Virus record (IMG/VR): IMGVR_UViG_644736365_000004
From: a virus
Taxonomy: Duplodnaviria > Heunggongvirae > Uroviricota > Caudoviricetes
DNA: 30,979 nt
Reading direction: 5' to 3' (one strand)
The notes beneath the pieces are model-generated. The model saw only the letters and a program-made list of their open reading frames with translations, was not told where the DNA came from and ran no database searches. The translations under genes were made by a program, and so were the position numbers. This document shows positions 1 to 30,979 of this stretch, one piece after another (within the stretch, counting starts at the first letter, position 1; each line of letters opens with the position of its first letter).

Positions 1-290
1 CTATTTATCGGAAGGTTTATCTTGCTGCGGTTTGTTGTTGACCATATCGCACAACATAGAGAGCAGCATTAACCGTACTTTAAAGGGAGAATGACTAAAC
101 ACGCGCATACACCTCTTGAACTCATTCATAAGACCTCCTGACTTGCTAATCCCGTCGATCCTTGAGGGATGATTGCATTACATACAGATATAGCACAGGC
201 TATATTATAAAGCATTAACTATCTACGAAAAACAGTAACTTACAGTGTTATCAATAAGTTACGTTAGTTAATATTCGTGAGTATTCGGCA

Positions 291-3207: not shown

Positions 3208-3711
3208 ATGTTTGATTACCAGACCTCTAAACATGCTCACTTTGATGCGGCTTGCCGAGCATTTGCAATTGAACACAATCTGGAAGATGTAGCCGCTGCC
3301 GTTGGTATGAGGCCGCAGATTCTGCGTAACAAATTGAATCCAGCACAGCCGCACCGTTTAACCTGTGACGAGCTTTTAGCTATTACGGATTACACCGAAG
3401 ATGCACGTTTACTGGATGGAATGCTGGGGCAGATAAACTGCCTCCCATCCGTACCGGTGAACAATGCCACAGAAGGCAACATGCAGTTGTGTGCACTAAG
3501 TGCCACAGCCTGTGTGGGTGCAATTGCTGGGGAAGCCGTATCAACTGGTCATATGACCGCCGCCCGCCGTACACAAATTCTGGATCGCGCTCGCGATGCC
3601 ATCCGCAGCTTATCCGTGCTGGCTTATACCGTTGAAAGCCGTATCCAGTCTGCGCCCGTTTTGGCCGCAGCGGTGGATCTGGTGACGGCTAATGCGACCG
3701 GCTTGATGTGA
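3208..3711 (+). CDS. CII-like regulatory protein (phage 186 CII family)
   Basis: 167-aa ORF with strong RBS GGGAGAGG. N-terminus MFDYQTSKHAHFDAACRAF...LRNKLNPAQPH resembles 186 CII as I recall it. Position after Apl matches the 186 early operon. Confidence 0.6.
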   Translation: MFDYQTSKHAHFDAACRAFAIEHNLEDVAAAVGMRPQILRNKLNPAQPHRLTCDELLAITDYTEDARLLDGMLGQINCLPSVPVNNATEGNMQLCALSATACVGAIAGEAVSTGHMTAARRTQILDRARDAIRSLSVLAYTVESRIQSAPVLAAAVDLVTANATGLM

Positions 3712-3720
3712 GGGAGCACC

Positions 3721-3893
3721 ATGAAAGCGTTCGTCACTTATCTGAAAAATGAATCACCGGCTAAGCAGCTGCCAAGCGGTTCCACTGGCTGGATCGAACT
3801 GCCAACTGGTCAGCGCTGGAATCCAAGTCATATGTACAAATTCAATGGTCAGCAACCGCGCCGTCCGTGGTGGCGTCGCCTGATGGGGCTATA
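3721..3893 (+). CDS. hypothetical small early protein
   Basis: 57-aa ORF (MKAFVTYLKNESPAKQL...), not in the ORF track because it is under 60 aa. GGGAG 5 nt upstream of the ATG, directly after the CII-like stop. Confidence 0.3.
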
Positions 3894-8119: not shown

Positions 8120-8196
8120 CAGTATAAATCTGTGTAACACGTTCATTTGTCAGTAGATGGCAGGAAAATACATTTCACAATTTGTGCTTTACGGTG

Positions 8197-8216
8197 TACT
8201 GTATGTATATACAGTT
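8197..8216 (+). promoter_or_regulatory. LexA (SOS) box
   Basis: TACTGTATGTATATACAGTT fits the CTGT-N8-ACAG consensus, 23 bp upstream of the 8239 ORF. Confidence 0.6.
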
Positions 8217-8238
8217 ATATATTGTTTGTGGGGGCTAA

Positions 8239-8445
8239 ATGGATCTTTTGGAAGCGTCGGCACAGCTGGAGCGCATTGAGTTATTGGCCAAAATTGCCCA
8301 TGTGTACGAAAGTAACCAGAGAGAAAAAACAATCGCTTTGGCCTGGATTGGTGAGATTGCTGGAGAAATGCGGGAGATGGTCAGAACAGAAGCTAAAAAC
8401 CCCCAGGAAGGGGGCTTATCAGGCGGCGGGAGTCGCTTTCAGTAG
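8239..8445 (+). CDS. putative SOS-inducible antirepressor (Tum-like)
   Basis: 68-aa ORF with G-rich RBS, directly downstream of the LexA box. Position after the replication gene matches tum of phage 186. No direct sequence recognition. Confidence 0.4.
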   Translation: MDLLEASAQLERIELLAKIAHVYESNQREKTIALAWIGEIAGEMREMVRTEAKNPQEGGLSGGGSRFQ

Positions 8446-8688
8446 GTCTAATGCCATTTGGCGCTGATCGGGTGAAAGTGCATTCAGTATTTTCTGCACC
8501 ATCGCATCACCCGTTTTCGCGCTGGGGCTGAGAGTGTGGGAGAACGTCAGATTCATCACAAACGTATGGCCACACTCCACATCTGAACAGGCGCAGTAAA
8601 TATCCGCAATCTGCCGGTGCTTCCGGTTTGTTTTACGAATAACAGCCTTTGAGCCGCATTCCGGGCATTCGATTTTCAGAACTCGCAT
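8419..8688 (-). CDS. Ogr/Delta-family zinc-finger late transcription activator
   Basis: 89 aa from the ATG at 8686-8688 (MRVLKIECPECG...). Cys spacing C-x2-C-x22-C-x4-C matches Ogr/Delta. The track ORF extends to 8742 but those upstream codons overlap the portal stop. Confidence 0.6.
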   Translation of the reverse strand: MRVLKIECPECGSKAVIRKTNRKHRQIADIYCACSDVECGHTFVMNLTFSHTLSPSAKTGDAMVQKILNALSPDQRQMALDLLKATPAA

Positions 8689-8738
8689 ATTCCATGCTCC
8701 AGCTGTTAAATGATGCCTGGATTTTAGCCTTTTTCGCC

Positions 8739-9800
8739 TCATGCCGCATCCTTATCCGTTGATTCTGTGTAACTTAAATCAAAGTTAAGGTGCAGACGTT
8801 CCGGTATTTCGGGATCGTTGTTAACAGCGGTCATAAACCGGCGCTGAATGGGCGCTATCTCACTTTTCTTGTAAATCCTTTCCGCCTTTTCAACATCCCC
8901 CAGACCGGCAGTGTTCTGCGGGACAATTCCTGCCAGCCCAGCGGGAAAGCGGTGCGCGTTGAGAATGTCCTGCGCACTGATGTTTTTGATGTTGGCAAAT
9001 TCATCTTTTGCGGAGATATCCCCCATTTCAATGAACTTGATCGCATCCCCATCCCCGCCAGGAATGTTCACCAGAATGGTGGAGAAGTTGCCGATACCTT
9101 TGCTGTCACGCAGCTGCTGTTCAATTTCTTCTTCCATTTCATCCGTCATGCTGGGATCGCGTGTATAGAGAATGCCGCCAGTATGAGCGCCGTTGTGGTA
9201 GTAGCGGCGGCGGAAAATCACGGCTTCACTGTTAAGCAATGCCGAGTGTACGCCACCGATATAGTCTGGCAGCCCGTAGATATGCTGCTGCGGGTCGTAC
9301 ATCTTGATAAAAATGATATCTTCCTGCGGCCATACCTGCGGTTCACCGTCCTGTAACACCACATAATCGCCGGGCTGGTCTGTGGCGTTGTCCCTGACTT
9401 TACGGCGGCGAATATACAGGCCGGGTAAAGGTTCCAGGGCAATTACATCCCCCCATCCGTTGCGGATTTTGCCAATCGCAATATCCCCGAAGGTTGTATA
9501 GTCAAACGCTGCGGCTTCCAACTGGTCGTAAGTCAGGCCACCGCCCAGGTAATCAGACACAATCATATTTTTCCGGGCGTGGATGATGCCGCCATGCTGA
9601 CCATTCAGATTGATAAGCTGTGCCAGTGCCAGCCGGTCAATCGGCTGGGTAAAGTGATCGGCGGCATTGTCGTACCAGATGTCGCGGTAATCCGTGCCGG
9701 TGGTCAGGACAGGTTCCGGTTTGCCGAATGTGATGATGCTCATTTTTTTGGACTTATCGCCGCGCGGGTTGCGCTTAACGAAGCGGTTTTTTTTACTCAT
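8739..9800 (-). CDS. portal protein (P2 gpQ-like)
   Basis: 353-aa ORF immediately downstream of and overlapping the terminase large subunit. Size and synteny match the P2 Q-P leftward operon. Confidence 0.8.
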   Translation of the reverse strand: MSKKNRFVKRNPRGDKSKKMSIITFGKPEPVLTTGTDYRDIWYDNAADHFTQPIDRLALAQLINLNGQHGGIIHARKNMIVSDYLGGGLTYDQLEAAAFDYTTFGDIAIGKIRNGWGDVIALEPLPGLYIRRRKVRDNATDQPGDYVVLQDGEPQVWPQEDIIFIKMYDPQQHIYGLPDYIGGVHSALLNSEAVIFRRRYYHNGAHTGGILYTRDPSMTDEMEEEIEQQLRDSKGIGNFSTILVNIPGGDGDAIKFIEMGDISAKDEFANIKNISAQDILNAHRFPAGLAGIVPQNTAGLGDVEKAERIYKKSEIAPIQRRFMTAVNNDPEIPERLHLNFDLSYTESTDKDAA

Positions 9801-26569: not shown

Positions 26570-27086
26570 TGGTGAAGCTATCCAGCTGAAAAACATGCGT
26601 GTGACCGTATCGCAGCAATTTCAGGATAAAGACCAGTCCGGCCAGACAAGCGCCACAACCAAATCAGAACAGGGGGCAAAAGGGAAAGAGCTGCGTATCA
26701 GTGGTGAAATTCCGTTTAAAAGCCCGGAGATCCTGAAGCGTATTTTTGAACTGGCCAGCGCCACGGATGCCGGAGGCAACCGCCAGAAATACCGCGTGGC
26801 ACATGAAGCGGCCAGAGCCGTGAATTTTCGCGAGGCGACATTCAGTGGAATGCTTGATGCCCCGCAGCAGGACGGGAAAATGGCCTGGCTGGTCACGTTC
26901 ACCCTGACAGAACATATCAGCGTGCAGGAAAAGCGGGAAGCCAGGGCAACAGGTAAAACGTCTGCCAAAAAACAGACGGCCGGTAATGCGGGACAATCTG
27001 GCGGTCAGAGTGCCGGGGAAGATGAAGAAAAACTGACGTGGTTTGAAAAACGGGTGCTGAAACCCGTCAATGATGCTTTGGGTTAA
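26541..27086 (+). CDS. hypothetical late-operon protein
   Basis: 181-aa ORF with strong RBS AAGGGAG. Overlaps the upstream ORF by 29 nt and the downstream ORF by 1 nt (TAATG). Low-complexity basic/Gln-rich C-terminal region. Confidence 0.4.
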   Translation: MTSIPTLALNGEAIQLKNMRVTVSQQFQDKDQSGQTSATTKSEQGAKGKELRISGEIPFKSPEILKRIFELASATDAGGNRQKYRVAHEAARAVNFREATFSGMLDAPQQDGKMAWLVTFTLTEHISVQEKREARATGKTSAKKQTAGNAGQSGGQSAGEDEEKLTWFEKRVLKPVNDALG

Positions 27087-28789
27087 TGATGAAACCAGTT
27101 AAACGCCTGTACCTTTCAACGGATGAAGTTCACCTGGCTGATGCCAGCCTGGTGCTGGAGCTGAACAGCTGCGGCCGGGGATTTATCACCGCACAGACTG
27201 ACGCGGATTACACCGGGAAACTGGTGCGACTGGATGTGGGATATTCCGATCTGCTTTTGCGATGGTTTACCGGCTACGTGGAACGCTCGCAACCAGCCGA
27301 AAACGGTTTTCAGCGTCTGTTTGTGCGCGAGCTGGTCGGCGTATTTGAAAGGATGTGGCCATGTTCATTTCAGCATCCCACTTTGCGCAAGATAGCCAGC
27401 TGGCTGGAGGAAAACAGCGGAATTGTTGTCAGTGTGCCGGATGCCCCCTACAGCGATATGCCGATCCCCCATTTCACCCATAACGGCACGGGTTATCAGT
27501 TGCTGAATAATCTGGGCAGAGCATTCAGTATTCAGGATTACATCTGGTACCAGTTGCCGGATGGTTCCCTGTATGTGGGCGGTGCGGAAAAAGCGATGTT
27601 TGCCGGTCGTCCGGTCGATATCCCGGCAGAGTTCAGCCAGGGTGCTGCTGGCGGTAATTCCATGACGCTGCCGGTGATCCAGAGTCTGCGGCCGGGAGTG
27701 GAGCTGAATGGGGAGCGTGTGACCAAAGTTCATCTGACCAATGACACAATGGCCGTCACCTGGACACCCAGAAACCGCGCAACAGGTCAGCCATTACAGA
27801 AAACACCTGCACAGCGCCAGATTGAGAGCCATTACCCGGAACTGGCTTCCGGGCTGCATCTGCCAAAACTGGCCAGAGTGGTGGCACCCAGTGAGGCTGT
27901 GAAAAGTGGTAATTTTGCCGATCCGTTCCGGCCGCGCTATGCCGTTGATGTGCAGCTGCTTGATGCAGATGGCAACCCGGACAACCAGACACCGGTTTAT
28001 TCTGCGGTGCCGCTGCCGGTACCTATGGCCGGGAATGACTCTGGCATGTTCCAGTTCCCGCCAGAAGGGACGCTGGTTGAAGTGGCATTTACCGGAGGTC
28101 GCCCGGATAAACCGTTTATCAGGCAGACACTGCCGGATGGTACCAGCCTGCCGGATGTTAAACCCGGTGAGCAGCTGCAACAGCAGCGGGCGGAAGTGTC
28201 GCAACGCGTTACCCAGGCTGGCGACTGGGTGAGGCAGACCGATCAGACCATCAGCGAAACATCGATGGCGCGGACGATCAAAGCCGATACGGAACAGCGC
28301 GAGCTGGTCAGCCGTGAAACAACGGTTAAAGCTACGGATAAGACCACGGTTCTGGGTACCTCCACCCTGATGGCCGGAGCCATCCAGCAGGTCAGTGCCG
28401 GTGATTATAGCCAGGCCGTGAAATGCAACAGGCTGGCCAGCATTGAGGGGAATGACGAAGCCGATATAACTGGCAAACAATCCACGAAAGTGGCCGGTGC
28501 CGTGGATGTTGATGTGGGGGGAGTCCTGACAGAAAAGATTGCCGCATTGCGTAAATCGGTGGCGGCGGGCGGCCAGCAGATTATGGGGCCAACCGTCCAT
28601 ATTGGCAGTGAGAGCGTCAACACCCTGACCATGATGCTGGACACCATTGATTTGCTGGCAGAGCTGGCGCGGCAATGTGCGAGCCATTCACACCCCAGCG
28701 TTGGTACGCCAACCAATGCCGAAGCATTTACCCAGACAGCAGAGAAGGCCGGACAGACCCGGAGTAAGTACCAGAAAATAATCGCCTGA
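27086..28789 (+). CDS. putative baseplate hub-spike protein (VgrG-like, gpD/gpV-type fusion)
   Basis: 567-aa last gene of the late operon. Internal motif GTLVEVAFTGGRPDKPFI resembles the gp5/gpV/VgrG OB-fold signature (VxVxFxxGDxxxPxI), followed by ~220 aa of Gly/Thr/Val-rich sequence. Confidence 0.5.
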   Translation: MMKPVKRLYLSTDEVHLADASLVLELNSCGRGFITAQTDADYTGKLVRLDVGYSDLLLRWFTGYVERSQPAENGFQRLFVRELVGVFERMWPCSFQHPTLRKIASWLEENSGIVVSVPDAPYSDMPIPHFTHNGTGYQLLNNLGRAFSIQDYIWYQLPDGSLYVGGAEKAMFAGRPVDIPAEFSQGAAGGNSMTLPVIQSLRPGVELNGERVTKVHLTNDTMAVTWTPRNRATGQPLQKTPAQRQIESHYPELASGLHLPKLARVVAPSEAVKSGNFADPFRPRYAVDVQLLDADGNPDNQTPVYSAVPLPVPMAGNDSGMFQFPPEGTLVEVAFTGGRPDKPFIRQTLPDGTSLPDVKPGEQLQQQRAEVSQRVTQAGDWVRQTDQTISETSMARTIKADTEQRELVSRETTVKATDKTTVLGTSTLMAGAIQQVSAGDYSQAVKCNRLASIEGNDEADITGKQSTKVAGAVDVDVGGVLTEKIAALRKSVAAGGQQIMGPTVHIGSESVNTLTMMLDTIDLLAELARQCASHSHPSVGTPTNAEAFTQTAEKAGQTRSKYQKIIA

Positions 28790-28800
28790 TCATCCCATTA

Positions 28801-28825
28801 GCCCGCGCGTAATGCGGGTTTTTTT
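28801..28825 (+). terminator. Rho-independent terminator ending the late operon
   Basis: Stem CCCGC (28802-28806) / GCGGG (28814-28818) with a 7-nt loop, followed by a run of 7 T (28819-28825), 12 nt after the hub-spike stop. Confidence 0.6.
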
Positions 28826-29333
28826 GTACCCATTCCCAGACCTCACCAGACGCATTCTAAGCGCTTCTTTTATCTGACCACTACCGCGCAACACCACAAA
28901 AGGATCTGTGCTGTCACGTTACGCTGACGGCGTTACACGCTGACGAAATAAATCTTTCGCAGACAAAAACGGCACTACACCGCACCCGCCTGCGGTTTCT
29001 GGATCGATAAAATTTTTCATTTTTCTTTTTCTTCAAACAACCAACCCAGACAGCGCCATTACTGGGGGATTAGCGGCTAACGTGAACTGAAAAGATTGAA
29101 AAGAATTTCAGTATTTTTCAGTGGAAAGGATCGATGGCGGGAATGATGAAATTACTAACATGTTGATATTTAATTAGTAATTTAGTTTTATGCGGGAGGG
29201 GGAGGATCCTTTCGTGCTGAATGGTTCTGAGAACATAAAGCCCGTGAAGATAGGAACTACGCGGGCTGTACATACTTTGTGTGTGATTTCAAAACTGAAA
29301 TTTATCAGCTGTGGCATCAGCAACTAGTTTTAA

Positions 29334-29504
29334 CTAACGTTTTTTAGGTGGTGGAGCAATATGTTGGGTTTGTTGGGTCTGGCGTGGTGGTTGGTAGCCA
29401 TTGTTTTGTTGGTCTGGCCTGCTTGTAGGCTGGTAACCTTTTTCTACAGGTTGCCAACCATCGTGGATAGTTCTTGGATTGTTAGCCGGTTTATCTTCAA
29501 CCAT
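29334..29504 (-). CDS. hypothetical small Pro/Gln-rich protein
   Basis: 56 aa from the ATG at 29502-29504, which overlaps the stop of the upstream membrane-protein ORF (AATGGTTGA). Contains repeated G[WY]QP motifs. Low complexity, so coding status is uncertain. Confidence 0.3.
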   Translation of the reverse strand: MVEDKPANNPRTIHDGWQPVEKGYQPTSRPDQQNNGYQPPRQTQQTQHIAPPPKKR

Positions 29505-30135
29505 TTTCTGCCTCACCTTTGTTAGGATTACTATTATGTACTTTAATAAATTCAACACTTTCTATTTCATTAGTCAATATAATTATCCCTAATGTATCGG
29601 TTAGTTCGTGATCGAAATCACTATTGTCATCTAGTGCCCAATGTTTTTCTAGATATATTTGCTCCGGTTCGGGACTACTTGACGCAAATGAAGCACTACC
29701 ATAATAGCCACCATATTTTTTACCATTCTTAAGTGTGACCAGCACCCAGCAGCATTGTCTGGTTGAAAAGAAGTAGTCCCATGAACGCCCAATAGGGTGA
29801 GGTAGGAAACGTTTGACCATTTCACAGTTTCGAATGAATATTAAAAATATAGGTAGTAGTACAGGGATAACTATTAATACACAGAAATAAAATAAATAAT
29901 AAAGGATTGGGTTAGTAAGGAATATATCATTATCTTCAATTAGATATATTGGTATTAATAGAAAAGAATAATTTATACAGCTATAAGAAACTACATCTAT
30001 CAGAATTTTTGAAGTGTCAGAATCCGCAGATGGGTGAAAGAGCCTGTAAACTCTCATGCTAATAAAGCCGGGCATGATGAAAAGCACAAATAACAGTAGT
30101 TTACCCTTTTCTAGTATGTCCATTTTTATATCCAT
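29497..30135 (-). CDS. hypothetical polytopic membrane protein
   Basis: 212-aa ORF in very AT-rich sequence. About three N-terminal TM helices (LLLFVLFIMPGFI, SFLLIPIYLI, LFYFCVLIVIPVLLPIFLIFI) and a ~110-aa soluble C-terminal domain. Confidence 0.5.
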   Translation of the reverse strand: MDIKMDILEKGKLLLFVLFIMPGFISMRVYRLFHPSADSDTSKILIDVVSYSCINYSFLLIPIYLIEDNDIFLTNPILYYLFYFCVLIVIPVLLPIFLIFIRNCEMVKRFLPHPIGRSWDYFFSTRQCCWVLVTLKNGKKYGGYYGSASFASSSPEPEQIYLEKHWALDDNSDFDHELTDTLGIIILTNEIESVEFIKVHNSNPNKGEAENG

Positions 30136-30180
30136 GAAATAAATATTTAAGCCGAATTAATTATAATTCGGCAATTAAAA

Positions 30181-30438
30181 TTAGAAATCTTCAATATCGA
30201 ATGAGTTAATGTCAGCAGGTTTAGCCTGGGGACGTTTACCCACGAGATTTTCTGTTTCTCTGAAAAGGACATCTTCTGCCCCACCTCTTTCGCGGTGAGA
30301 ATCCTCTTTGATGTAAAGACGTTCTTGCTGCATACGAAGAATCGTTCTTTCAATTAGCTCATACAAATCGCATCCTGAGTGATTTAACTCTGTTAATAAT
30401 GCCTTGAGGGCAAGCTCAGTTTGGTATCTGGTAGCCAT
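30181..30438 (-). CDS. hypothetical small soluble protein with acidic C-terminal tail
   Basis: 85 aa from the ATG at 30436-30438 (track start is TTG two codons upstream), with AAGGA upstream. Predicted helical N-terminus; ends ...ADINSFDIEDF. Confidence 0.45.
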   Translation of the reverse strand: MATRYQTELALKALLTELNHSGCDLYELIERTILRMQQERLYIKEDSHRERGGAEDVLFRETENLVGKRPQAKPADINSFDIEDF

Positions 30439-30481
30439 TTGCAAATATCCTTAAGTGAAGGTTAATCTGGCTGCGAAATTG

Positions 30482-30979
30482 CTACAGCTTTCCTTCCGAA
30501 ATCTTGAAGTCCACAACTTCTTTAGTTTTCAGATCAAGCGTGCAAGCATAAGTCATGGTCATTTTGGCATTGAAGCCATTGGTGAATTTGACCTTATCAC
30601 CGATGAAAGTTAACTGGTTCTTTTTGCTATCAATTCGGCCATGTGAAAACATAGGGTCTAACATCCCATCAGTCCATTCAAATTCATATTTTGCCGAACG
30701 CTCAACCAATGGTTTGCATTTGGTCACCGCATCGATCAGGTTCTTATCAAAGTTGCACTGAGTGTCTGTGTTAGAGCATACCTTCGTGGCCTCAGCTGCT
30801 TTATCGTCGTCGCTATTGCCAACGAAGTACATGACTATCCCGACAATAATAATCAGTATCAGACAGCCGCTAAGTTTCTGTTTAGCACCAAAGCCCGGAT
30901 CTTTAACGCCGCAGTGAGGGCAGGTCTTTGCAGAGGTTGATACTTCTTTTTTGCATTCTTTGCATTTAGTGAGTGCCAT
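30482..30979 (-). CDS. hypothetical zinc-ribbon membrane protein
   Basis: 165-aa ORF. N-terminal zinc ribbon C-x2-C-x10-C-x2-C (CKECKKEVSTSAKTCPHCG), one TM helix (LILIIIVGIVMYFVG), and a Cys-containing ~115-aa C-terminal domain. Its ATG is the last 3 nt of the window, so the N-terminus and promoter may be cut off. Confidence 0.5.
   Translation of the reverse strand: MALTKCKECKKEVSTSAKTCPHCGVKDPGFGAKQKLSGCLILIIIVGIVMYFVGNSDDDKAAEATKVCSNTDTQCNFDKNLIDAVTKCKPLVERSAKYEFEWTDGMLDPMFSHGRIDSKKNQLTFIGDKVKFTNGFNAKMTMTYACTLDLKTKEVVDFKISEGKL

Follow-up and report, generated by a model that had tools for sequence, protein, structure and literature searches.

The 30,979 nucleotides (nt) considered here, those of IMG/VR record IMGVR_UViG_644736365_000004 ('the window' in what follows), are a P2-family prophage plus a host flank, with a cluster of four minus-strand genes found toward the right end, at 29334-30979. 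Two of these genes, which encode a 212-amino acid (aa) membrane protein of Pfam family DUF6338 (PF19865) and a 56-aa proline- and glutamine-rich peptide, constitute a near-obligate, translationally coupled pair that is seen across phyla. This pairing, of DUF6338 with a small protein bearing GYQP-type repeats, is undescribed and belongs to no described system. For the cluster as a whole, the best explanation, to which I would assign a probability of about 0.5, is that of a composite. That is, the cargo slot at the attR end of a P2-family prophage, itself inserted into the host mntS promoter, would hold three parts: a membrane protein with a zinc (Zn) ribbon, a transmembrane (TM) helix, and a periplasmic NTF2-like domain, as carried there by many phages of this lineage; an orphan 85-aa protein; and a self-contained module of DUF6338 plus a disordered GYQP-repeat small protein, conserved across phyla, which may be conflict-related and peptide-regulated.

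Evidence for the pairing comes from a genome set in which one genome per species was scanned with a DUF6338 alignment, resulting in 80 loci. A same-strand partner open reading frame (ORF) lies downstream of DUF6338 in 76 of the 78 loci having downstream sequence, with DUF6338 itself truncated in the two exceptions, and an independent IMG/VR set possesses a partner ORF at 54 of 56 usable loci. These partners are from 31 to 85 aa in length (median 55) and contain one to four copies, usually three, of the motif [K/E/D/N]-G-[Y/W/H]-[Q/K/V]-P, along with C-terminal tails of the form PPPKK(P/R/K), PPKKK, or PP(G/K)(D/E/G)(E/R). As background, of the roughly 9,270 remaining small ORFs of that DNA, no more than 15 contain two or more such motifs. 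Among the 76 partner starts that were scored, 34 overlap the DUF6338 stop codon and 35 are found within 40 nt of it.

The peptide as encoded by the window carries three GYQP-type repeats (DGWQP, KGYQP, and NGYQPP) and the tail APPPKKR, with its start overlapping the DUF6338 stop by 8 nt, in ATGGTTGA, and with a Shine-Dalgarno sequence, AAGGTGAGG, at 29511-29519, i.e., 6 nt 5' of the peptide ATG. Enterobacterial copies display ratios of nonsynonymous to synonymous substitution rates (dN/dS) of 0.02-0.11, that is, purifying selection. As partner peptides have no cysteine, hydrophobic runs of no more than three residues, and 17% proline, they are predicted to be both disordered and cytoplasmic; neither do they display a signal or leader sequence. 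A peptide profile run against 1.8 billion proteins gave 22 matches, about 17 of which are genuine small-protein members, with the large proteins that were matched, which are eukaryote-like repeat proteins, rejected as spurious. No match to the peptide was found in Pfam, NCBIfam, PHROG, or PADLOC. Its gene is missing from the RefSeq annotation of the closest Escherichia coli lysogen and is annotated in E. coli GF131 and Combat13F7. Two or three tandem peptide genes follow DUF6338 in certain instances (L069, L076, and L135 10119-10430, plus Pseudomonas stutzeri CP036186 2666728-2667116), and two tandem partner peptides are annotated on a 10.5-kb Acinetobacter pittii plasmid.

Within the literature searched, DUF6338 is linked solely to a proteogenomics study of P. 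stutzeri, in which three novel proline-rich small proteins were found to be encoded downstream of a DUF6338 gene (PMC10433244); a literature search for PF19865 and GYQP returned nothing relevant. The P. stutzeri small proteins possess the tails PPPPKK, PPPPPKRDSK, and PPPPPKKGG, were detected by mass spectrometry essentially at full length and in cells, and were reported as species-limited, i.e., not conserved beyond (PMC10433244). That operon thus has the same order, DUF6338 and then proline-rich ORF, along with PPPPK(K/R)-type tails. It differs in that the partner family is found here across phyla, whereas GYQP repeats are largely absent from the P. stutzeri copies.

The 212-aa protein matches the DUF6338 profile with E = 4e-37 and 128.2 bits, versus a cut-off of 26.5, with residues 12-199 aligning to profile positions 7-202 of 205, i.e., it is a full-length member. 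RefSeq relatives are named 'DUF6338 family protein' and begin four codons later, at what in the window is 30123. An AlphaFold2 model, based on a 24-sequence alignment and with a predicted local distance difference test (pLDDT) score of 75, displays long helices at 2-33, 41-68, and 76-103, then a short helix and a small beta-barrel at 118-198. The latter has what defines the Sm fold, that is, an N-terminal helix plus a strongly bent, five-stranded beta-sheet. The protein is predicted, from this model, to consist of three TM helices, oriented N-out/C-in, followed by a cytoplasmic C-terminal Sm-like barrel. Because charge bias gives this N-out/C-in orientation, with the N-terminus averaging 0.5 K+R and 2.3 D+E and the segment following the third TM helix averaging 3.7 K+R, the Sm-like domain would be cytoplasmic and indeed in the same compartment as the peptide. 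Invariant within the family are P22-G23-F24 (first TM helix), Y51-S52-x-x-N55-Y56 (second TM helix), P91, H113-P114, W119-D120, F123, G143, and G183.

No Pfam LSM or Hfq match to the DUF6338 protein was found at E <= 1, and, as a difference from Sm, LSm, and Hfq proteins, this domain has three TM helices that anchor it in the membrane, as well as motifs of its own, HP..R.WDYFF and SFASS.PE.EQ. In MscS, three TM helices precede a cytoplasmic beta domain that is Sm-like and assembles into a heptameric ring. DUF6338 shares this order of domains but, with PF19865 its sole Pfam match, does not match the MscS profile (MS_channel, PF00924), which extends over the TM3 pore helix and the beta and alpha/beta domains, nor is MscS among its top structural matches. 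For Pfam, DUF6338 is a family without an assigned function; new here are its three-TM plus Sm-like architecture and its near-obligate partner peptide. Two candidate features of the family were rejected. A Cys-His-Asp triad (C53, H113, and D120), suggested by the 24-sequence alignment, is one, as among 73 sequences H113 and D120 are conserved but C53 is not. The other is natural fusions of DUF6338 to low-complexity tails (P0072 and P0089), which look like out-of-frame read-through of the peptide gene.

Do peptide and membrane protein bind each other? Across 73 pairs, Sm-surface charge (position 132 plus the loop 167-182) and tail charge (the peptide's last residues) are inversely correlated, with a Spearman rho of -0.79. 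Basic tails pair with a hydrophobic residue at 132 plus an acidic residue at 171, as seen in the window with the tail PPPKKR and the loop DDNSDFDHELTD, while acidic tails (PPGDE and PPGAE) pair with K or R at 132. Counted by locus, K/R132 occurs together with a non-basic tail in 19 instances, a basic tail occurs without K/R132 in 47, and 7 are discordant. On a tree constructed by the unweighted pair group method with arithmetic mean (UPGMA), from which the tested columns were left out, there are 10 changes of tail class and 8 of K/R132, with six of these on the same branches. Because tail and barrel-surface charges covary inversely, the peptide's C-terminal tail may dock on the Sm-like domain, probably near beta-strand residue 132 and the loop 167-182.

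As to where such pairs are found, the 80 loci span Proteobacteria, Chloroflexota, Planctomycetota, Nitrospirota, Acidobacteriota, Synergistota, Sporomusaceae, and a Lokiarchaeota metagenome-assembled genome (MAG). Neighborhoods vary widely, in that the 115 flanking genes represent 92 Pfam families, none of them seen in more than three loci. Same-strand genes located within about 100 nt upstream encode a reverse transcriptase (12-nt gap), an AbiGi-like protein, an MmeI-type restriction-modification enzyme, and an ImmA/IrrE-helix-turn-helix protein, as well as subtilase, PDC-S64, and LigA, while other flanking genes include SNF2, AAA_13, nSTAND3, Abi_2, AAA_21, and integrases. In another element, a 47%-identical E. 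coli variant has as its neighbors an integrase, a TIR protein, and an SNF2 gene. On viral contigs of at least 25 kb, the DUF6338 gene lies a median of 4.9 kb from the contig end (Kolmogorov-Smirnov p = 0.0016). It is present as well on 12 of 72,556 plasmids, including ones of 10-27 kb, e.g., the A. pittii plasmid noted above and a 16-kb Fluviibacter plasmid, and on a phage-plasmid.

Turning to the cluster itself, an ORF check finds four minus-strand ORFs at the expected coordinates (Table 1), separated by gaps of 43 and 45 nt in addition to the just-noted overlap of the last pair, with a GC content of 0.33-0.41 versus 0.53-0.59 in the adjoining late genes. The AT-rich, tightly packed, minus-strand cluster of the preliminary description, there placed about 500 bp past a late-operon terminator, is in these respects as claimed, with that terminator found as well. 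All four ORFs are real genes, since the peptide and 85-aa genes are under purifying selection and the other two belong to conserved families. A hairpin beyond the peptide stop is, tentatively, a possible terminator of the DUF6338-peptide unit, though one which a stricter terminator scan missed. An Rfam scan of the whole window found no RNA family.

Table 1. Locations of features within the window (positions in nt, numbered from the first letter of the window).
Feature	Position	Strand	Remarks
Zn-ribbon/TM protein gene	30482-30979	-	165 aa; CxxC...CxxC knuckles, one hydrophobic helix
85-aa protein gene	30181-30438, from ATG	-	87 aa if an upstream TTG start is used
DUF6338 protein gene	29497-30135	-	212 aa; alternative start at 30123
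Pro/Gln-rich peptide gene	29334-29504	-	56 aa, MVEDKPANNPRTIHDGWQPVEKGYQPTSRPDQQNNGYQPPRQTQQTQHIAPPPKKR
RNA-type hairpin, GCCGAAUUA-UAAU-UAAUUCGGC, then U/A-rich tract	30151-30172	-	Between 85-aa stop and DUF6338 start; minimum free energy (MFE) fold
Hairpin, AGCCCG...CGGGCT, then TTTATGTT	29230-29268	-	About 65 nt past peptide stop; sequence reading plus MFE fold
Variable insert versus cargo-less relatives	29137-30482	-	85-aa, DUF6338, and peptide genes plus about 200 nt of 3' sequence
Conserved non-coding border element	28941-29136		Inner edge of cargo slot; about 200 nt
Late (tail/baseplate) operon intrinsic terminator	28800-28829	+	Terminator scan; about 500 bp before cluster
567-aa baseplate/spike-like gene	27086-28789		Upstream of late-operon terminator; phrog_2258 baseplate protein match, E = 5e-277
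attL core, GCTATATTATAAAGC	199-213		Lysogen versus empty-site comparison; pattern unique in window

The cluster fills a variable slot, and three of its four genes make up an insert there. By blastn against cargo-less relatives such as L086, window segments 30483-30979 and 28600-29136 are conserved, with 174 nt between these two segments in L086 versus 1,346 nt here, and the edge of the resulting insert falls directly after the Zn-ribbon stop codon. At the other edge is a border element, homology of which stops sharply at about 29132, and which 456 of 5,426 complete E. coli genomes (8%) carry, as do IMG/VR relatives. It consists of CTGAAA/TTTCAG repeats plus an invariant GC-rich hairpin, CCGCAGGCGGGTGCGGTGTAGTGCC, followed by a T-run (28969-28986, minus strand), with this hairpin and T-run likely the terminator of the cargo transcript. 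As a whole, the element may terminate the operon, bind a protein, or mark a boundary of recombination. A 33-aa ORF inside it is not conserved among relatives, and RNAalifold found no covariation across it.

DUF6338 cargo is found in 5 of those 5,426 genomes, plus 3 with a distant variant, and the Zn-ribbon gene is found in 4. Related E. coli prophages carry alternative cargo past the border, i.e., a trio of ATPase, STAS, and PIN proteins, PIN-domain proteins of 372 and 470 aa, two small hypothetical proteins, or a 345-aa protein matching the PADLOC candidate PDC-S64. With the border so much more common than this particular cargo, and with other cargo in its place, the locus is highly variable among prophage-bearing strains. 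Its genes are, in line with the preliminary description, accessory ones of no housekeeping or phage structural family. The PDC-S64-matching protein, which is of about 341-345 aa (E = 1e-42 to 1e-47; scanned at L002 12343-13368 and L130 5461-6498), is encoded, in E. coli Combat13F7 (L002), immediately ahead of the DUF6338-peptide pair and, in E. coli Br_190_kylling (L130), alone in the same prophage slot. A 341-aa ORF occupies the same upstream position in Citrobacter (L070 4961-5983), with the PADLOC scan having covered L002 and L130 only.

By the usage of Rousset et al. 2022, this slot qualifies as a hotspot, though one that is distinct from the published gpA-gpQ hotspot. The latter lies in P2 between gpA (replication gene A) and gpQ (portal), adjacent to cos (PMC9122126). 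The two are alike in belonging to P2-family prophages and in being highly variable, AT-rich slots that include defence-type genes. They differ in position, as the slot here is at the attR end, following the last baseplate gene, and in that the cargo here, along with most of the cargo of the relatives sampled, matches no validated system. The window's own gpA-like to gpQ-like interval (about 8120-8745) contains only ogr and one small ORF; with that interval nearly empty, variable cargo has therefore moved to the attR end.

Identification of the prophage's ends comes from mapping att sites between a lysogen, NZ_LR778152, and the empty K-12 site, this comparison giving a 15-bp att core of GCTATATTATA(T/A)AGC. 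RefSeq lists, for a 97%-identical E. coli lysogen, an integrase, CI, CII, Fil, a replication endonuclease, ogr, a portal, and a terminase, as well as P2-type capsid, tail, and baseplate genes. The window begins within host DNA, with 1-129 being the host gene mntS on the minus strand and position 1 the end of mntS, continues through attL and nearly the whole of the prophage, and ends at the Zn-ribbon ATG, with the operon's promoter region beyond. The attR site is found about 190 nt past the window's right end, in the host mntS promoter, with the Zn-ribbon ATG on one side and mntR on the other (core at L001 14357-14371, with the K-12 locus at L004 4068-4082). The preliminary description had placed the cluster just outside of the late operon, on a prophage flank. 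Because attR is beyond the window end and past the Zn-ribbon gene, the cluster is found within the prophage and not outside of it, between the last tail/baseplate gene and attR.

Insertion has consequences for the host promoter as well. The att core is palindromic, MntR-box-like, and contains TATAAT, spanning -3 to -17 of the annotated RybA/mntS 5' end. Following integration, the intact upstream half of the mntS promoter is at attR and directed into the prophage, toward the Zn-ribbon operon, while at attL mntS retains the core and has its -35 region replaced by phage DNA. As this upstream promoter half faces the prophage, a manganese/MntR-regulated host promoter may drive the cargo operon. The four-gene block is found also in related prophages that occupy other att sites, i.e., beside mug/rpoD in Salmonella and at tRNA-Ile in E. 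coli GF131.

The first gene of the block, that for the Zn-ribbon protein, is a frequent end-of-prophage gene in this phage lineage. Its product has a putative N-terminal C4 Zn-ribbon (C6, C9, C20, and C23), one TM helix, and a periplasmic domain that is NTF2/cystatin/VirB8-like, i.e., an alpha+beta cone fold following a single TM helix, and which contains four invariant cysteines. More than 150 homologues were found, with the four ribbon cysteines invariant in the 30 compared. Scores against PF10571 and PF13248 are 25.9 and 23.8 bits, respectively, which are below the cut-offs of 29 and 27; many homologues nonetheless carry precomputed matches to one or the other. The sole PHROG match in the cluster is of this protein, to phrog_13160 (function unknown). 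A nucleic-acid-facing role, which had been ascribed to the ribbon, is unsupported; the protein is bitopic, crossing the membrane once, and has its NTF2/VirB8-like domain in the periplasm.

The second gene product, the soluble 85-aa protein, is under purifying selection (dN/dS of 0.03-0.18 among diverged copies), with a conserved N-terminal half plus a conserved acidic-aromatic C-terminal tail, SFDIE(D/V)F (here SFDIEDF, 30181-30203). That tail resembles protein-docking tails such as the C-terminal tip of single-stranded DNA-binding protein (SSB). No family, Protein Data Bank, phage-database, or further viral-contig relative of this protein was found, and it is seen only within the four-gene block. 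Between its gene and that for DUF6338 is the RNA-type hairpin of Table 1, with stem pairing kept among relatives, i.e., both-arm changes in the Salmonella and IMG/VR copies (L126 and L097) and a G-U pair in that of E. coli GF131 (L133). It is a candidate attenuator, terminator, or processing site. The window's DUF6338 start lacks the AAAGGA Shine-Dalgarno sequence which is present in the Salmonella, IMG/VR, and GF131 copies.

Do these four genes nonetheless make up one integrated defence or exclusion system, as had been suggested, in which the Zn ribbon would be the sensor, the 85-aa protein the adaptor, and DUF6338 the effector, along with a small peptide? They are co-oriented and tightly spaced, are found together in Salmonella, E. 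coli GF131, and one IMG/VR contig, and the block has been kept in at least four diverged prophage lineages, within which the 85-aa and DUF6338 proteins are 74-85% and 77-86% identical. Joint occurrence, however, is confined to these few related prophages. Of 35 IMG/VR contigs that have the Zn-ribbon gene, usually in the final position and adjoining the baseplate/spike gene, 34 lack the other three; homologues of the Zn-ribbon and 85-aa genes are absent from all 80 of the DUF6338 loci of other genomes; and in E. coli Combat13F7 a DUF6338 protein that is 84% identical, plus peptide, is preceded by PDC-S64 and other genes, but by neither of these two. Both the conserved hairpin ahead of DUF6338 and the insert boundary directly after the Zn-ribbon stop likewise argue against integration, making one system highly improbable. 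Consideration of the Zn-ribbon gene as a recurrent upstream partner of DUF6338 was similarly abandoned, with only 3 of 77 loci qualifying, one of them a degraded remnant. The roles that had been assigned to the parts are unsupported, and what adaptor-like behavior there is belongs to the 56-aa peptide, which apparently binds DUF6338.

What the DUF6338-peptide module does is a matter of context and of analogy. Phage lambda's RexA/RexB consists of a polytopic inner-membrane protein along with a cytoplasmic partner, both expressed from the prophage as lysogen cargo. By analogy, the cytoplasmic peptide may regulate a membrane-perturbing DUF6338 activity, as RexA controls RexB, with Sm-like domains perhaps assembling DUF6338 into a ring-shaped oligomer, as seen with Sm, LSm, and Hfq proteins and their hexameric or heptameric rings. 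Though alike in outline, i.e., a membrane protein plus cytoplasmic partner as prophage cargo, no RexA/RexB model is among the matches obtained here, and the partner is a 56-aa disordered peptide versus a folded protein of 279 aa. The pair would act in mobile-element or phage conflicts, whether as defence, exclusion, or abortive infection, a role suggested by genomic context and by the resemblance to RexAB and to the TM effectors of PMC9122126. A broader version of this is possible, if doubtful: a widespread two-component system in which a membrane-anchored, Sm-like ring is held or gated by a multivalent disordered peptide. Such a pair would serve phages, plasmids, and defence islands as an effector of exclusion or abortive infection that stands alone and, at times, is added on to one of a variety of sensors, e.g., a reverse transcriptase or an AbiGi, STAND, or SNF2 protein.

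Several points weigh against this conflict-related interpretation. No component matches a PADLOC (E <= 1), Pfam, or NCBIfam model of known function, with DUF6338, the 85-aa protein, and the peptide returning nothing from the PADLOC, NCBIfam, and PHROG scans, so the phage-defence identity of the preliminary description is one of context rather than of homology. Defence genes among neighbors were counted without a background enrichment comparison, and some neighbors are housekeeping genes, e.g., ligA and a short-chain dehydrogenase. The test of covariation was only partly corrected for phylogeny. Exceptions to the pairing exist as well: in L142 (IMG/VR, about 3620-3790) the peptide is cut short by a nonsense codon, KGH*PTSRP, beside an intact DUF6338; L194 encodes a divergent but intact DUF6338 and has no recognisable peptide; and in L070 and L085 DUF6338 is frameshifted with the peptide intact. 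Such exceptions argue against a strict dependence in either direction. Lastly, the P. stutzeri peptides are abundant during ordinary growth, which also fits a non-conflict role (PMC10433244).

Such a role might be a physiological one, with DUF6338 serving, for example, as a small-protein-regulated channel, transporter, or stress module that hitchhikes on mobile elements. The span of the family, from Proteobacteria, Chloroflexota, Planctomycetota, Nitrospirota, and Acidobacteriota to an archaeal MAG, is consistent with this, as are its expression in P. stutzeri under standard growth, the housekeeping genes among its neighbors, and a three-TM plus Sm-like layout that recalls MscS. It is, however, unlikely given the family's patchiness and rarity (5-8 of 5,426 E. 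coli genomes and 12 of 72,556 plasmids), the heterogeneity of its neighborhoods, its residence in prophage cargo slots, and its lack of Pfam similarity to MS_channel or any transporter. Quite unlikely is a plain addiction module, toxin-antitoxin-like, in which DUF6338 would be a membrane toxin and the peptide its labile antidote, together stabilizing prophage or plasmid and having no anti-phage role. That these are two small, translationally coupled genes which are found on prophages, a phage-plasmid, and small plasmids would be expected of such a module, and covariation implies, at the level of sequence, direct binding. An intact DUF6338 nevertheless persists with its peptide truncated (L142) or absent (L194), a frameshifted DUF6338 is seen with its peptide intact (L070 and L085), a membrane-protein-first order is atypical of type II systems, and the P. 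stutzeri peptides, which reach high spectral counts, are not obviously labile (PMC10433244).

The peptide instead could be the product, i.e., a proline-rich antimicrobial or a peptide like those that are ribosomally synthesized and post-translationally modified, with DUF6338 its exporter or immunity protein. The P. stutzeri authors note proline richness as an antimicrobial-peptide trait and place DUF6338 in biosynthetic gene clusters (PMC10433244), and the two or three tandem peptide genes of some loci are as often found in bacteriocin loci. These peptides, however, lack a signal or leader, cysteines, and any conserved modifying enzyme nearby; have been detected unprocessed, essentially at full length and intracellularly; and, with a mild charge (median +2.5) and a richness in Gln, Asn, and Thr, are unlike Arg-rich proline-rich antimicrobial peptides. 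As Sm-like domain and peptide both are predicted to be cytoplasmic, this explanation is very improbable indeed, and the analogy to proline-rich antimicrobial peptides in particular is ruled out by composition plus predicted location.

Whatever the module's role, gene callers usually miss the partner peptide, yet about 130 of 134 informative loci have it, from Enterobacteria to Planctomycetes and an archaeal MAG, and a new family thereby is added to the poorly charted bacterial small proteins. An uncharacterised Pfam family also gains a testable architecture, in which a multivalent, disordered small protein would bind a Sm-like domain anchored in the membrane. Insertion into the host mntS promoter suggests, in addition, that a promoter responsive to manganese is being rewired by the prophage. 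Should defence, exclusion, or addiction turn out to be what the pair does, it would represent a new type of effector, and the attR-proximal slot of this common prophage lineage, found in 8% of complete E. coli genomes, would be a new place in which to search.

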